Source: an uncultured bacterium (GTDB lineage Bacteria > Desulfobacterota_D > UBA1144 > Nemesobacterales > UBA2774). Taken from it: a stretch of 11,045 nt of DNA. The translations under genes and the position numbers were made by a program. The notes beneath the pieces are model-generated. The model saw nothing but the letters and a program-made list of their open reading frames with translations. It was not told the DNA's origin and did no database searches. Numbering within the stretch: the stretch's first letter is position 1; each line of letters opens with the position of its first letter. The stretch covers positions 1 to 11,045 of the forward strand of contig CAWGRW010000007.1 of assembly GCA_963825135.1 (NCBI GenBank), in the 5' to 3' direction. Shown here piece after piece: positions 3,706-10,013 of the stretch.

Positions 3706-4500
3706 ATGAGCCGTGAATCAGAGCTGAAAGGGATCATCGAGGACTTGAAGAGGCGTCTCGAATTTGAGAAATCCATGGGAGTCGCGAGGGCGCCAGTGGA
3801 AAAAAAGGCCGGGGAAGAGACCATCCCGAAGGCTCCCGGGAAAGAGACGCAACCAAAAGCTCAGACATCACCTGAAAAAAAGGACGACGCTATAAGAATA
3901 GAAGAGCAGATCGGCATATTCGACGCCTCCGCCAAGAAGATGACGCTCGAAGAGATAAGGGCGGAGATAGGGGACTGCACCCGGTGCAAGCTCCACGAGG
4001 GGAGGACGAATTTGGTGTTCGGGGAAGGGAACCCGAAGGCGAGGCTCGTATTCGTGGGGGAGGGGCCGGGGAGGGACGAGGACCTGCAGGGACGTCCGTT
4101 CGTGGGGAGGTCGGGACAGCTCCTCACCAAGATAATAGAGGCTATGGGGTTAAAGAGGGAGGACGTATATATATGCAACGTGGTGAAGTGCCGCCCGCCC
4201 GAGAACAGGACTCCAGAGCCCGACGAGATGGCGACCTGCGAGCAGTTCCTCTTCAAGCAGATTAGGTCGATAGAGCCCGGGGTCGTAGTGTGCCTAGGGA
4301 GCACGGCCGCGCAGTCCATACTTAAAACGAAACAGAGCCTCGGGAGCCTCAGGGGGAAGTTCCATCAATACGGAAGGGCGAAACTTATGGTAACTTATCA
4401 TCCTGCGGCCCTTCTCAGGAACCCGAATTTCAAGAAGCCGCTCTGGGAAGATATGCAGGTAGTGATGAAAGAGCTTGGAATCTCAAAACCGGGCGATTAG
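3706..4500 (+). CDS. udg: uracil-DNA glycosylase family 4 (Fe-S cluster type)
   Basis: 264-aa ORF with CTRCKLH, VFGEG, FVGEGPG, GRPFVGRSG, NVVKCRPPENR and YHPAALLR. AAGGA RBS-like sequence upstream. Low-complexity N-terminal extension. Confidence 0.94.
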   Translation: MSRESELKGIIEDLKRRLEFEKSMGVARAPVEKKAGEETIPKAPGKETQPKAQTSPEKKDDAIRIEEQIGIFDASAKKMTLEEIRAEIGDCTRCKLHEGRTNLVFGEGNPKARLVFVGEGPGRDEDLQGRPFVGRSGQLLTKIIEAMGLKREDVYICNVVKCRPPENRTPEPDEMATCEQFLFKQIRSIEPGVVVCLGSTAAQSILKTKQSLGSLRGKFHQYGRAKLMVTYHPAALLRNPNFKKPLWEDMQVVMKELGISKPGD

Positions 4501-4563
4501 CTCAGTGGATAGAGCGCAGGCCTCCGAAGCCTGAGGCCGGGGGTTCGAGTCCCCCATCGCCCG
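4491..4563 (+). tRNA. tRNA-Arg(CCG); CCA end not encoded (followed by CAA)
   Basis: Full cloverleaf: acceptor GGGCGAT/ATCGCCC; D arm GCTC-AGTGGATA-GAGC with the A20 arginine identity base; anticodon stem CAGGC/GCCTG with loop CTCCGAA (CCG at 4524-4526); T arm GGGGG-TTCGAGT-CCCCC; discriminator G4563. Confidence 0.97.
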
Positions 4564-4677
4564 CAATAAAATAAACTATGATAAGTATAGATTAAACCAA
4601 TATACAGAAGTTGGATTTAGTATGTAGATCGTGCGTAGTGTCCAAACAGGGGTGGCTCATTACGATGGAGAAGTGAC

Positions 4678-5163
4678 ATGATGAAGCAAGCAAAGAACAC
4701 GATTTGCCTTTGGTACAATGGCGACGCCGAAGAGGCGGCGCGTTTTTACGCCGAGACCTTCCCCGATTCATCTGTTGGCGCGGTACTCCGCGCACCGGGA
4801 GATTTTCCGTCGGGGGTGCAAGGGGACGTGTTGACGGTCGAGTTTACCGTTATGGGGATTCCTTGCCTCGGGCTCAATGGCGGACCCGCATTCAAGCACA
4901 ACGAAGCGTTCTCATTTCAGGTCGCAACTGTTGACCAAGCCGAAACGGATCGTTACTGGAACGCGATAGTAGGCAACGGTGGCGAGGAGAGTGCGTGCGG
5001 CTGGTGCAAGGACAAATGGGGATTGTCCTGGCAGATCACGCCGATTGCTCTCATCAAAGCGATAACCAATCCCGATCGCGATGCCGCCAAGCGCGCATTC
5101 GATGCGATGATGCAGATGAAAAAGATCGACATTGCTGCAATCGAGGCGGCGCGCCGCGGTTGA
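4678..5163 (+). CDS. VOC/glyoxalase-superfamily protein (PhnB-like, '3-demethylubiquinone-9 3-methyltransferase' family)
   Basis: 161 aa with ICLWY..DAEEAARFY, VLTVEFT, LNGGP.F...EAFSF, CGWCKDKWGLSWQI and AMMQMKKIDIA. GGAG RBS at 4667-4670. Start could also be 4681. Confidence 0.9.
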   Translation: MMKQAKNTICLWYNGDAEEAARFYAETFPDSSVGAVLRAPGDFPSGVQGDVLTVEFTVMGIPCLGLNGGPAFKHNEAFSFQVATVDQAETDRYWNAIVGNGGEESACGWCKDKWGLSWQITPIALIKAITNPDRDAAKRAFDAMMQMKKIDIAAIEAARRG

Positions 5164-5169
5164 GGTTGC
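5155..5169 (+). repeat. 15-nt cassette-end motif CGCGGTTGAGGTTGC, copy 1
   Basis: Identical to 6064-6078. Lies immediately 5' of the tRNA fragment, is absent from the intact tRNA, and contains the VOC stop codon. Confidence 0.9.
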
Positions 5170-5216
5170 GCCTCCGAAGCCTGAGGCCGGGGGTTCGAAT
5201 CCCTCATCGCCTGCCA
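5170..5216 (+). repeat. tRNA-Arg 3'-half direct repeat (att-like site) 1
   Basis: 47 nt GCCTCCGAAGCCTGAGGCCGGGGGTTCGAATCCCTCATCGCCTGCCA. Matches the tRNA from 4520 onward with three substitutions and ends in CCA. Confidence 0.95.
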
Positions 5217-5276
5217 AATACCGCCGATTGTGCGGCATGACGCGATATCACCGTCGATTCTGTTTTGCGCTAGCGC

Positions 5277-5305
5277 TTGATAGCGGCGATGGTACCCGTT
5301 ATCCT
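5277..5305 (+). promoter_or_regulatory. putative sigma70-type promoter for a leaderless TIR transcript
   Basis: TTGATA (5277-5282), 17 nt, TATCCT (5300-5305), 7 nt, then ATG 5313. No Shine-Dalgarno sequence before the ATG. Confidence 0.5.
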
Positions 5306-5312
5306 CGACCAC

Positions 5313-6011
5313 ATGGCTAGATGCACAGCACCAGTACATGGCCATCGCACAGCGAGCGGTCGCAGCGGCCTGCCCTGCATGTGGTGGCCGCTATCGCGGC
5401 TACGGGTCAGCTACTGGTCGTACTCGTCCCCGTCCTACTCCTCGTCGGGGAGCAGCGGGGGCGGCCGGAGCAGCGGCGGCGGGTCCGGCAGCAGCGCAAG
5501 GCCGCGCTGGTCGCGAGCCGGTTCGTCCGTGGTGTACACGCCTGCCGAGGTGCGGGCACTCACGCCGGTCCGCGAAAGCGTCGAGAAGCGAGCGCCCCTG
5601 CCTGACCTTCGGGACGTCTTTCTCTGCCACGCGTGGGACGACCGGAAAGGGGCCGCCAAGGAGCTGCACGATCTGCTCGAGTCACGCGGTGTCTCGGTCT
5701 GGTTCAGCGAGAAGGACGTCGCCCTCGGCACGCCGTTGCTCCGCGAAATCGACAAGGGACTGGCGAAGTCGCGAGTCGGGATCGTGCTGGTGACCCCTGC
5801 GCTGCTGCGCCGCCTCCAAGGAGAGGGCATCGCCGACAAAGAGCTTTCGGCACTCCTCGCGCGTGACCTGCTCGTTCCCATCGTGCACGACACGACGTAT
5901 GAAGCTCTCCGCGAAGTCAGCCCCCTGCTCGGCTCGCGAAGCGGCCTGAGCACTGCAGAAGAGCCGATGGCAAACGTCGCGGCCAAGCTCGCCGAGCTGG
6001 TCGCCCTCTAG
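5313..6011 (+). CDS. TIR-domain protein with N-terminal Cys/His segment and Ser/Gly-rich linker
   Basis: C-terminal half has TIR motifs DVFLCHAWDD, VSVWFSE, EIDKGLAKSRVGIVLVTP, DKEL (putative catalytic Glu) and LVPIVH. ATG 5313 (232 aa) preferred over TTG 5277, which coincides with the predicted -35 box. Confidence 0.88.
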   Translation: MARCTAPVHGHRTASGRSGLPCMWWPLSRLRVSYWSYSSPSYSSSGSSGGGRSSGGGSGSSARPRWSRAGSSVVYTPAEVRALTPVRESVEKRAPLPDLRDVFLCHAWDDRKGAAKELHDLLESRGVSVWFSEKDVALGTPLLREIDKGLAKSRVGIVLVTPALLRRLQGEGIADKELSALLARDLLVPIVHDTTYEALREVSPLLGSRSGLSTAEEPMANVAAKLAELVAL

Positions 6012-6063
6012 CTCTATTGTCAGGGTGGCCGGCCCGACGTCGCACAAGCGGTCAAGGCGCCGG

Positions 6064-6078
6064 CGCGGTTGAGGTTGC
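6064..6078 (+). repeat. 15-nt cassette-end motif CGCGGTTGAGGTTGC, copy 2
   Basis: Identical to 5155-5169 and again directly abuts the tRNA fragment. Confidence 0.9.
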
Positions 6079-6125
6079 GCCTCCGAAGCCTGAGGCCGGG
6101 GGTTCGAGTCCCCCATCGCCCGCCA
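6079..6125 (+). repeat. tRNA-Arg 3'-half direct repeat (att-like site) 2
   Basis: 47 nt: identical to tRNA 4520-4563, then CCA. Confidence 0.95.
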
Positions 6126-6146
6126 TTGTTTACTCAATATTTAAAA

Positions 6147-9100
6147 TCACACACTTAGTCCATTCCTTACAATATCTTCCAGACATTCAAATCTAATGCC
6201 TTTTTTTCCTGGTGAAGTGTCATACAATATCGGAACGGGATTTGAAAAAATAACGTATGGAACAATATTTACTTCTCCCAAATTGAGCTTGCAGAATTTT
6301 GAAAGCTGGTCTTTGTGCATTGAGAGCACATCAATACGAAGCAAGTGCTTTTTTAGCCGATCTGGTTTTCCATCTCTATCCTCACCCCTAAATTCCATCA
6401 ATTGCTCTGCAATTTCCTTGGAAGTTTTTGCGTAATATAAATCCTTGCACTCTATTACATATATCGATTTCTCTCCATTCCTCCAGGCTATTACATCTAT
6501 ATCACCATAGTCTCTATCAAGGTTTTGTCTTGAAATAATGGAAGCTACCTTAACATCCGAATACGCCTCATAACCCAGAGATTTAATAGAACCGGCCACT
6601 TCCTTATTGAATTTGTGTCCCCGTCTGGTTCTTTCCTTCCCGATCCATTCCCTCATTTCGGGGGAACTGCAGCGGCTTTCTTCAATGTTACATTGGTTAT
6701 ACGTATCTAGGATATAAGCCAGCGATTCCCCTACAAGACCTGCAGAAAGTATGAATCTTGAGTCCTCTGCGTCGTCTACTATTACGAATGGTTTCATAAG
6801 AAGAGATAGCCTGCGGCGGAAAAGCCACGGGTTAATATCCCTCTGCGTATAAGTGGAAGGTGGCATTGCCCAATCATTGCGGGGCTGCAATGAGAAAGAA
6901 TTGAGAATCTTAGTTGCATCCTTACCGCTACAGAGCATCCCTTTTTCACAGAACGCAATAATTTCACTTTTTCGGGCTGCGAACACAGTTTTTTGTTTTT
7001 CTTCAGCCATATTTTCTATTTCTTCCCGGAATCTAAGTAACGTCTCAGCACATACCCCAGTCTCTTTTTCAAATGCGTCTAGAAATTCTTGAGAAAAAAT
7101 CTTTGATAACTGTCTTTGGAAAGGCACATCTTCAAAATATTTTTTATACCTGTCAGCTGCTGATGTGAAACTTGTTTTTTCAACTCGAGCGGAGAGGGGA
7201 ATTAAGACTTCGTCGTGAAAAGTTTGTTCTGTTTTTATTTCCCCACTAGCGGATACCACAATTCTTGGTTCTGTTACACCTTTAGCAATGGCATCCGACA
7301 TGTTTCCAATGTGAAATAAAAGGGATGCCATTGACATGAGTGGACTCAGATCAAAGCGACCCATCTCTGCTCCGCCGTCTATAGGGCTTTCGCAAACAGC
7401 TGTTTCAACAATAATCCTGCATGCGATGTCAGCTGCATAAAATCCGGAAAAATGCTCTCTGGTAACATTATAAACATCTTCTTTGTCATGATGTAACCCT
7501 AAAATGGCTTTGGCTGATCTCTTCCATTTCTCCTTCTCAGCGGCTACACCTTCAATATTTCTTAGAGCAGTTGTTATCAAAGATTCACGATTATATTCTT
7601 TAAGTTTTCTCTTGAGGTTATCCCATGAATGGTCCACTATTTTTTCTAAGAACGAACTACATTTTTCTTTCCCTTTAATTTCCTTATAACCTATTACACC
7701 TTCTAAATGACCCAATCCAATTTTTACAAAACCTGCATCAAATTTATCAATCCGCTCAAAATCACATCTGTCAAAGACTTGTATATGTTCCCTAAATCCG
7801 TGTGCTTTAAAAAAGTGTATATACCTTGCATCTTCATTAGGGATGATTTGATCACACAACTCATCGATCTGTGAATTCTCCAAAGTATGATTTACCAAAG
7901 TAAAAAAAGCTTGTACGCATGATCGAACCAACGCTCGTTCACTTATGTTTCTTGAATTATAAAGATTGTATAAAAATGGCTCTCTCACTTGAAGCTTAAT
8001 AGTATTTACATCATGGATAACCTCCACGTCAATAAGACTATCTGTTTCTCCCGGAGGATCCTCCGGTAAATATTCGTAGTGAGGAAGAGCCGAAACATCC
8101 AGTTCATAAAGTATCGGTCCAGATATCAAATTATAGAATCTTCCATCAAGAATCGATGATATTCTATTCATCCAATTGAGGAGCGCATCCCAAATTCTGA
8201 TACTAGAATCTGAATCGAGTTCGGCCTCATCCTGTTTTAGCTCTACCCACCAAGGTCTGATTTTTGTTACCGCACAACCTGATCAACCGTCCCTTGCCTG
8301 CATCCTGATAGCTCGCAAATATAGGGATATCTGCGTCTTCAGCGAAAAAGGATGTTAAAATCTTTCTGCGTACTCTTTTAAACATCCCGTCTATGTATTT
8401 TTCACTATGCATGTCGCTGGATTGCCGCGTTGTTTGACGAACCTTCACCAAACAATCCGTTGGAATTCTGATTATGCATTCGCCTTTACCAACTTCTACG
8501 TACTCTGGAACTGGATTATAATCTGTCATCTCATACCAACCATACAGATTTAATAAACCATTAATATTGGCAATCTTCACATTATATTCAGCCATTTTCC
8601 TTCTCTGTTCCAAAAGTTTCCAAAGAGATTTAGCAATAGCGTCCGGAATCCAACCAATGGTTTCAAGGTCATGCGCTGATATGAATTCAAAATTCCAATT
8701 CGAGATTTTCTCGGACATCATTAGCACCGCCGGGCGTCCATAACCTGCTGATACTATTAAAGACAAGCCATCTTTGAAATCTTCCCTAGCGTCAGTGAGT
8801 CTTTTGCTGCGAGTATGCGCCGTTCAATTTCCTCCGATTGTTCATGTGAATGAGGTGGTGGATTATCCATACCTTCTTCTAAGAGTCCATGAAGAGTGTC
8901 TATCCTTACCAAAATATGAAGATAACGTCCCTTATCAATCTGCGCTATGACATCAAAGAAATATGCTCCAGCTATTTTTTCTGGTCGTAATTGCAGACCT
9001 TGGGGGACAGGCTTTCCCAAGATGGGTGTCTCCTGCAGAAAACTTATATATTCCCTTACATAATTTCTTTCAAAGCTGTCTGCCAGCCCCATCTGTGAAG

Positions 9101-9843
9101 CCATTCAAATATGTATCTCCGGATTGCCACACTAATAGCCGTAGGAAGAACCAAAATAATCTTATTATCATCAACAAGAAGTGGAGAACGTTCGAGGTCG
9201 GTGTTACCGAATTGTTGGTTCCGAAGATTTTCCCGGTAATTTGAATCAAATACAAATGCAGTCAAATCCTCTGTGGAAAAACCCATTCTTTCAATATCTG
9301 CCCGTGAAAAAGTCAAAGTCTTTGCCAGTCGTTTTAGAGTCTCAGTGTTAGGAACATTTATATCTTCTTTGTCATGGCTTTCAGCTATTTGATAAAATGC
9401 AGCGTTATTACGGTGAGCACTTCCTCACTAATAGACAAAAGCGCATGAATGGGCTTGAACAATGAACCAGAACCCATATTTGGAGGAATTGACTGAATAG
9501 TGTCGAGTACTTTTTGAAGAAAAAAATCGTTTCCTTCCCATAGCCCGTTATAGATGCGGAAATCCCCCCATTGAGTCATCACTCCTGCCACGAAGACGTC
9601 TTCAACCGGATCATCCATGTAGGATGCAGCGCTGATTGGATTGAAATCATTCAGCCATCTTTGAATTCTTTTTGAAGAAGGTTGTAGTTTTCCGTCACTA
9701 TGACTGAGCAAATAATGTATGAGTAATTCTATCCTGAAAGTATTTGCATGAAACCGTGGTGCAAGAAGAAGCCCGGAAACCAAGCTTGCTGATTTTATTG
9801 GATTAGCTTCTCGTATTTCTCGCGGTAATTCATTCATGATCAT
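6147..9843 (-). pseudogene. large (~1230 aa) hypothetical protein with C-terminal PD-(D/E)xK nuclease-like motif, split by four frameshifts (genuine or assembly error)
   Basis: Five collinear minus-strand ORFs (9385-~9843, 9056-9316, 8757-9104, 8227-8766, 6147-8171) have overlapping open frames and join at about 9418, 9100, 8800 and 8282, e.g. SISEEV/AHRNN and GKGRL/GCAVTKIRPWW. C-terminal GDIDVIAW...VIECKDL at ~6439-6506. Start ATG at 9843 or 9837. Confidence 0.72.
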
Positions 9844-9972
9844 CGAAATTAAATTATAATTGCAAATATGGCAAGAGACTATTTCGAAACCCTCTTTTGC
9901 CAAATATATAAGTTTGAAACAAAGGTATGCCCTAGGTCGCGAAAGCTGCACTCCTGAATATCTGACTACCCT

Positions 9973-10013
9973 AGCCTGAGGCCCCGGGGGTTCGAGTCCC
10001 CCATCGCCCGCCA
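9973..10013 (+). repeat. tRNA-Arg 3'-part direct repeat (att-like site) 3, shorter and with a 2-nt insertion
   Basis: AGCCTGAGGCC[CC]GGGGGTTCGAGTCCCCCATCGCCCGCCA. Matches the tRNA from 4528 and lacks the anticodon and the 15-nt motif. Confidence 0.93.

Follow-up and report, generated by a model that had tools for sequence, protein, structure and literature searches.

Here we present a clean, small example of a tRNA gene that has collected foreign genes, two of its three cargoes being anti-phage genes. The window, by which we mean the whole stretch of DNA that was analyzed, is 11,045 nucleotides (nt) long and comes from an uncultured bacterium (contig CAWGRW010000007.1 of assembly GCA_963825135.1). 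Within it, positions 4565-10013 consist of three tandem single-gene inserts lying in one tRNA-Arg(CCG) gene, and each insert is bracketed by two copies of the 3′ part of that tRNA. The first two inserts, which carry a VOC/PhnB-like gene and a ThsB-type TIR gene, end in the same 15-nt motif, CGCGGTTGAGGTTGC, directly before the tRNA fragment that follows them, and the third carries a broken Upx anti-phage gene. We favor, with moderate confidence, the explanation that these are decayed or minimal elements, flanked by attachment (att) sites and devoid of an integrase in the manner of cis-mobilizable elements (CIMEs), which were stacked by successive site-specific integration. The two 15-mers would then flank two attR-type junctions on the element side, having come down to both inserts from one attP-type end, and it is as a whole that we regard this explanation of the motif as the best one and as reasonably probable.

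The features on which the argument depends are as follows, in the order in which they occur along the window.

4491-4564, plus strand: the live tRNA-Arg(CCG) gene, called by ARAGORN and matched by the Rfam tRNA model (73.3 bits, E 6.7e-15).
4565-5169, plus strand: insert 1, 605 nt from the end of the tRNA to fragment copy 2, made up of an 85-nt AT-rich leader (29% GC) and the VOC/PhnB-like gene.
4678-5163, plus strand: the VOC/PhnB-like gene, 161 amino acids (PF06983, E 6.6e-49), whose product ends in ...IEAARRG*.
5155-5169, plus strand: motif copy 1, made of 9 nt of VOC coding end (Arg-Gly-stop) and GGTTGC.
5170-5216, plus strand: tRNA 3′ fragment copy 2, from the anticodon loop to CCA, delimited by repeat comparison with the live tRNA.
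5217-6078, plus strand: insert 2, 862 nt at 66.5% GC, holding the TIR gene and an att-side end.
5313-6011, plus strand: the ThsB-type TIR gene, 232 amino acids (PADLOC ThsB PDLC00424 over its full length, E 7.5e-119; PF13676).
6035-6072, plus strand: a possible decayed VOC 3′ stump, its last 9 nt secure and the remainder suggestive.
6064-6078, plus strand: motif copy 2, the same sequence as copy 1, non-coding here.
6079-6125, plus strand: tRNA 3′ fragment copy 3, which matches the live tRNA through the discriminator base and then has CCA.
6126-9972, minus strand: insert 3, 3847 nt at 39.6% GC, holding the Upx gene and lacking the 15-nt motif.
About 6147-9890, minus strand: the Upx anti-phage gene (NCBIfam NF042954; PADLOC Upx), in five successive frames with four frame breaks.
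9973-10013, plus strand: tRNA 3′ fragment copy 4, which marks where the inserted stretch as a whole ends.

All three fragments follow the live tRNA in direct orientation, and the downstream flank differs for every copy. Copies 2 and 3 both begin to match the tRNA 2 nt ahead of the CTCCGAA loop, as the original prediction had described, at the two bases that close the 5′ strand of the anticodon stem, and the match continues to the 3′ end. Copy 2 departs from the live tRNA by three transitions, in the T-loop, the T-stem and the acceptor, while in copy 4 identity begins just past the anticodon loop and is interrupted by a 2-nt CC insertion in the variable region. The live gene has GCAATA after its discriminator base, so CCA is not encoded there, whereas all three displaced fragments have GCCA (the ends to compare are 4560-4570 in the live tRNA and 5212-5216, 6121-6125 and 10009-10013 in the fragments). 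Such individual 3′ flanks and small differences from copy to copy (GCAATA against GCCA, the three transitions, the CC insertion) point to separate donor att sites. We infer that the 3′ part of the live tRNA derives from the most recent insertion, that copy 2 is the attP-derived part of insert 2, and that copy 4 is the original tRNA 3′ end of the host.

Tyrosine integrases that target tRNA genes reportedly fall into several sublocation classes, set out by Williams in 2002, including one whose crossover lies in the anticodon loop. Like islands of that class, the locus has an identity block that extends from the anticodon loop to the 3′ end and a displaced fragment at the far end of the insert; unlike them, it has no integrase beside the tRNA, and its inserts are far smaller than is typical. 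The proposal that this class was at work agrees with the shared motif, which would fit two elements that used one attP type and crossed over in the anticodon loop or beyond it. Of the usual hallmarks of tRNA-integrating islands, the locus has the bounding tRNA and the direct 3′ repeat, and it lacks the internal integrase.

The 15-nt motif occurs in the window at 5155-5169 and 6064-6078 only, even when up to three mismatches are allowed, a loose setting at which 11 of 200 shuffles also gave at least two matches. Longer junction strings (a 21-mer and a 30-nt degenerate pattern) return the same two places, and none of 200 shuffles gave any match to them. Both copies adjoin, in the same register, the 5′ side of a tRNA-Arg(CCG) 3′ fragment, so the claim of an exact repeat, unique in the window and set directly before the att-like repeats, stands. 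Two things had been overlooked in that earlier account, the fourth tRNA fragment at 9973-10013 and the coding nature of nine of the fifteen nucleotides. Motif nucleotides 1-9 (CGCGGTTGA) are the 3′ end of the VOC gene, whose TGA stop falls within the motif, and GGTTGC is the sole non-coding part of copy 1, a spacer between the VOC gene and the tRNA identity block.

This end of the VOC gene is native and is conserved in homologues that have no tRNA piece behind it. Seven plasmid homologues were compared (from Crinalium, Kovacikia, Gemmatirosa, Sinorhizobium, Aeromonas, Variovorax and Shinella): the stop is at the same position in all seven, five end in AARRG*, the Sinorhizobium homologue has exactly CGCGGTTGA, and none has GGTTGC or a piece of tRNA after the gene. 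Neither GGTTGC after GGTTGA nor a tRNA core was present in any of the ten plasmid loci examined, and among the best 120 protein relatives of the VOC gene, 75 end in RRG and 99 in RG. The original prediction had read the motif as a conserved attP-side arm for a recombinase, of which one part survives: the two copies do appear to be the element side of attR-type junctions of common descent, but the motif is not an arm in its own right, its first 9 nt being the coding end of a VOC gene. The octamers TCGAGGCG (at 5141) and TCAAGGCG (at 6052), reported earlier as a weaker similarity further upstream, do exist, but their offsets are 2 nt apart and the resemblance upstream of the motif is, taken alone, not beyond chance, the score of a free local alignment being reached by 436 of 2000 shuffles and that of anchored alignments by 83 to 1091 of 2000. 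The first octamer, TCGAGGCG, is ordinary conserved VOC coding sequence, as are motif nucleotides 1-9.

The coding origin of the motif bears directly on the idea that a donor tRNA-Arg supplied the motif as its degenerate 5′ half, the attP having been a whole tRNA-like sequence. In favor of this idea, ARAGORN folds 5144-5216 as tRNA-Arg, calling it a second tRNA-Arg(CCG), and Infernal finds an alignment of 6063-6122 with the tRNA model in which the D-arm is deleted. But what would be the 5′ half belongs to the VOC coding sequence and is conserved in homologues that lack a neighboring tRNA; the alignment over copy 3 scores 22.2 bits (E 0.76), under the 29-bit gathering cut-off of Rfam; and the motif and tRNA-fragment sites fold no better than their shuffles (z −0.42 and +0.19). 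We rejected this candidate on those three grounds and regard it as highly improbable. Rfam has no tRNA match at 5144-5216, and the ARAGORN call there is a pseudo-tRNA, a VOC coding tail joined to a tRNA fragment, not a gene. An integron attC site was rejected as well, the folds being no better than shuffles and no R″/R′ core pair being visible by eye. Two cautions can be drawn: a motif beside an att site may be no more than the tail of some conserved cargo gene, and a junction of this sort can be reported by ARAGORN as a tRNA.

Insert 2 has the same 15 nt without having a VOC gene. Its cargo is unrelated to that of insert 1 and differs from it in composition (a PF06983 VOC gene at 56.6% GC against a TIR gene at 67.8% GC), both of which had been noted from the sequence. 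By simple arithmetic, a coincidence of 9 nt at a fixed position has a probability of about 4e-6, which is so improbable that the end of insert 2 is best read as inherited, and insert 2 would accordingly descend from an element that ended in a VOC gene. Possibly as much as about 37 nt of a VOC stump is left there. Aligned to eight VOC tails over 14, 20, 28 and 36 nt before the motif, the sequence reaches scores that are matched by 145, 65, 2 and 20 of 1000 shuffles, respectively, the 28-nt length having been chosen post hoc, once the shared GACGTCGC had been noticed. The putative stump resembles other VOC alleles, those of the GACGTCGC type, more than it does the neighboring VOC gene.

That last resemblance is one of several points that bear on a purely local event, in which one att junction (the 15 nt with its tRNA fragment) was duplicated, or its two copies were homogenized by gene conversion, and the shared motif would therefore say nothing about the attP of the second element. 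The sameness of the 15 nt and of the next 29 nt in both copies speaks for such an event, as does the fact that the motif was found at this locus only in the collections searched. On the other hand, there are three differences in the T-arm and acceptor part, the flanks after the copies differ, the 3′ flank of the live tRNA is different again and without CCA, the suggestive stump lies nearer to other VOC alleles than to the adjacent gene, and a TIR gene of 68% GC between the copies is left unexplained. A local duplication had also been named as an alternative in the original prediction; we keep it, as decidedly unlikely.

Both of these cargoes are widely transferred single genes. Plasmid homologues of the VOC gene, with nucleotide identity of up to 85%, are found in Cyanobacteriota, Gemmatimonadota and Pseudomonadota, and those of the TIR gene, with 70-84% identity, in Alpha-, Beta- and Gammaproteobacteria, Bacillus, Paenibacillus and Planctomycetes. 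The composition of such genes can stand out sharply from their surroundings, as with the VOC gene of the Crinalium plasmid (57.8% GC between flanks of 39-44%) and the TIR gene of a Bacillus paranthracis plasmid (54.5% GC between flanks of 30-34%). The VOC protein family is very abundant, with 85-91% identity across sources as varied as Cyanobacteria, Nitrosomonas, Marinobacter, Desulforhopalus, Planctomycetes and Thiolinea, a breadth of hosts which suggests, as far as sequence comparison goes, frequent transfer of the single VOC gene. Among 5.8 billion proteins the best full-length identity was 91% for the VOC protein and 89% for the TIR protein, and no near-identical copy of either was present.

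Under the favored explanation of stacked, att-flanked elements, site-specific recombination of an attP with the tRNA gene, presumably catalyzed by a tyrosine integrase, would have brought in each insert, with the attP carrying the 3′ part of the tRNA from the anticodon loop onward. Each newcomer would have given the tRNA a new 3′ half and displaced the older fragment outward, and the order of arrival would be Upx first, TIR next and VOC last. Inserts 1 and 2 would belong to one attP lineage, in which the sequence to the left of the crossover was a VOC tail (Arg-Gly-stop) plus six bases, and the crossover itself would fall somewhere from the anticodon loop to the T-stem, its limits being 5170 and the first variant base of copy 2. 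Insert 1 would have kept the whole VOC gene; in insert 2 the VOC gene would have been reduced to a stump, with the TIR gene in front of it. The VOC tail may thus be a visible scar, marking one insert as the descendant of an element like its neighbor. Now without an integrase, the elements would be mobile only if one were supplied in trans.

The third insert fits this order, since the outermost gene, Upx, is also the most decayed, with its four frame breaks. The NF042954 model is covered colinearly in pieces, at model positions 20-158, 166-273, 365-547 and 551-1223. The insert DNA matched nothing in the plasmid and phage collections. Insert 3 lacks the motif, and its tRNA identity begins at a different point, so it would seem either to have used another type of site or to have diverged. 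Signs of decay are the broken Upx gene and the VOC stump of insert 2 (9 nt to roughly 37 nt); relics of genes from integrative and conjugative elements (ICEs) or integrative and mobilizable elements (IMEs) were not seen.

Several points weigh against this explanation. No open reading frame (ORF) of at least 50 amino acids scanned in the inserts matches a recombinase or integrase family in Pfam, NCBIfam or PADLOC, and the window has no integrase or excisionase that we could see, so that the mechanism is deduced from the anatomy of the locus alone. The same scans revealed no relics of ICE, IME or phage genes, so that decay from larger elements is only presumed. All three inserts have exactly one gene with short leaders, which is odd for random decay, and simple decay does not account entirely for this one-gene trimming of all three, which keeps an integron-like reading alive, if only as an unlikely one. 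For the VOC stump beyond its last 9 nt, the alignment window was chosen post hoc, and the free local alignment was not significant (436 of 2000 shuffles). A second instance of the junction was not found in the genomes, plasmids and phages searched. Finally, the host LeuRS has its best match (93%) in proteins that their sources assign to uncultured Thermodesulfobacteriota or Candidatus Dadabacteria, so the window may stem from a metagenome assembly, and the order of its segments is to be taken as provisional.

This last point leads to the alternative of an assembly chimera, in which segments of different organisms were joined at a common tRNA sequence. The steps in GC content lend themselves to it, running from 55% in the left host flank through 52.7%, 66.5% and 39.6% in inserts 1, 2 and 3 to 51% in the right host flank, as does a host that is probably of an uncultured lineage. 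Joins between true tRNA genes would, however, leave 5′ halves of tRNAs at the junctions, not a VOC tail followed by GGTTGC, and the longest exact repeats are shorter than 50 nt. The left and right flanks are alike in composition and hold ordinary housekeeping genes (by Pfam and NCBIfam, thiE, leuS and a family-4 uracil-DNA glycosylase on the left and an SDR/FabG-like gene on the right), and the two junctions would be real even if the order of the segments were scrambled. We consider a chimera very unlikely.

The original prediction had gone further and proposed that the motif defines a family of cassettes, and the collections that were searched offer nothing for this. The exact 21-nt junction was found at no locus in 185,579 species genomes, from which it follows that the genome collection is without the window's own genome. 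A relaxed pattern also had no locus in the same genomes; it allowed any base other than G before the identity block, left the variable-loop and T-stem bases free and excluded true tRNAs by design, and it recovers both junctions in the window. When the att region (6040-6130) was compared with 72,556 plasmids, there was one weak match of 44 nt, to the tRNA part only, and nothing in 50,697 phage records matched 4565-6130, a stretch that takes in the two motif copies as well as tRNA fragments 2 and 3. Across the genomes, plasmids and phages searched, then, the motif is seen at this locus only, the very outcome that had been named in advance as pointing to a one-off event. Near the plasmid homologues of the TIR and VOC genes there were no tRNA genes (six of six loci scanned) and no att-type direct repeats bracketing the genes (four loci scanned), and homology breaks off no more than about 30 nt from where the ORFs end; by sequence, the plasmid loci give no hint that this cassette structure exists outside the window. 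A keyword search of the open-access literature found no description of single-gene cassettes flanked by tRNA-derived att sites. There is, in short, no evidence of a wider cassette family in the genome, plasmid and phage collections, although such a family may be confined to uncultured lineages.

A rival to the favored explanation is a reading in which the 15-mer is a conserved, putative recombinase-binding arm, and a family of single-gene minicircles was captured at tRNA-Arg, in integron-like fashion, by an integrase acting in trans. It draws strength from the contents of the locus: all three inserts have a single gene and no integrase, in two of them the site closely follows the gene in the same orientation, the 15 nt are identical, in contrast to the 28 nt before them (3 of 30 ungapped matches), and the cargo is of a widely transferred kind, two of the genes being defence genes. 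Against it stand the empty searches for the exact and relaxed junctions, with the plasmids yielding only the tRNA part and the phages nothing; the nine native VOC coding nucleotides, the conservation of which needs no recombinase; the lack of near-identical cargo proteins, the best being 91% and 89% over their full length; the third insert, with no motif and with identity from a different point; and the other side of the site, which has no common sequence. We hold this reading to be unlikely, though not negligible.

Integron gene cassettes are inserted by recombination of attC with attI, catalyzed by IntI, and attC is an imperfect palindrome with an R″/R′ core pair that folds into a hairpin. 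The inserts resemble such cassettes in being single, packed, mutually unrelated genes, each followed by a short site, of foreign composition and with no recombinase inside. They differ in that a tRNA 3′ part, and not an attC hairpin, serves as the site, with no R″/R′ pair by eye, that the window has neither IntI nor attI, and that one gene of the three points the other way. With no attC-like hairpin, no IntI and no attI, these inserts are not integron cassettes, however alike the layout. One might still imagine a tRNA-anchored analogue of the integron, to which we give little credence, in which minicircles of 0.6-4 kb, with an attP of roughly 60 nt (a short arm plus the tRNA-Arg 3′ part), were captured serially by an integrase encoded elsewhere. 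Cargo would then have been swapped in front of a conserved arm, and the VOC stump would be the scar of that swap. If true, this would be a new platform for gene capture, comparable to integrons, by which a streamlined, uncultured bacterium would assemble defence and stress genes into a small array.

Returning to the favored explanation, the closest described kind of element is the CIME. In the sections of PMC5704250 that treat them, CIMEs are flanked by attL and attR, have no genes for integration or transfer, and accrete in tandem at the 3′ ends of tRNA genes. The inserts here are likewise att-flanked, with no integration or transfer genes found, and stand in tandem at a tRNA 3′ end. Unlike the elements described in those sections, they are single-gene inserts of 0.6-3.8 kb, and the window has neither ICE or IME relics nor a functional partner element; the earlier presence of integration and transfer genes in them would have to be supposed. 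The setting also differs from the streptococcal one given there, with a host that is Thermodesulfobacteriota- or Dadabacteria-like, and mobilization here is putative. A second comparison is offered by the tycheposon islands of Prochlorococcus, where, according to the relevant portions of the preprint, there are successive integrations at one tRNA, with partial tRNA copies between them and degenerate remnants (bioRxiv 10.1101/2020.12.28.424599). The stacking with partial tRNAs and remnants is shared, as is cargo of an adaptive or defensive sort. Tycheposons, as portrayed in those portions, carry an integrase and usually replication genes, whereas the inserts here have neither, and the likeness is one of layout.

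A few smaller observations concern the genes themselves. No ThsA was found among the window's ORFs by Pfam or PADLOC, so within the window the ThsB gene stands without the ThsA that is its partner in Thoeris. A promoter-like site, TTGATA-17-TATCCT, is located at 5277-5305, 8 nt before the start of the TIR gene; it is a match to the consensus only, and as a putative promoter it would yield a near-leaderless TIR transcript. The 113-nt leader of the VOC gene has no promoter-like site on the plus strand. At the left edge of the locus, the uracil-DNA glycosylase ORF (3706-4500) runs 10 nt into the 5′ end of the live tRNA (4491-4500).

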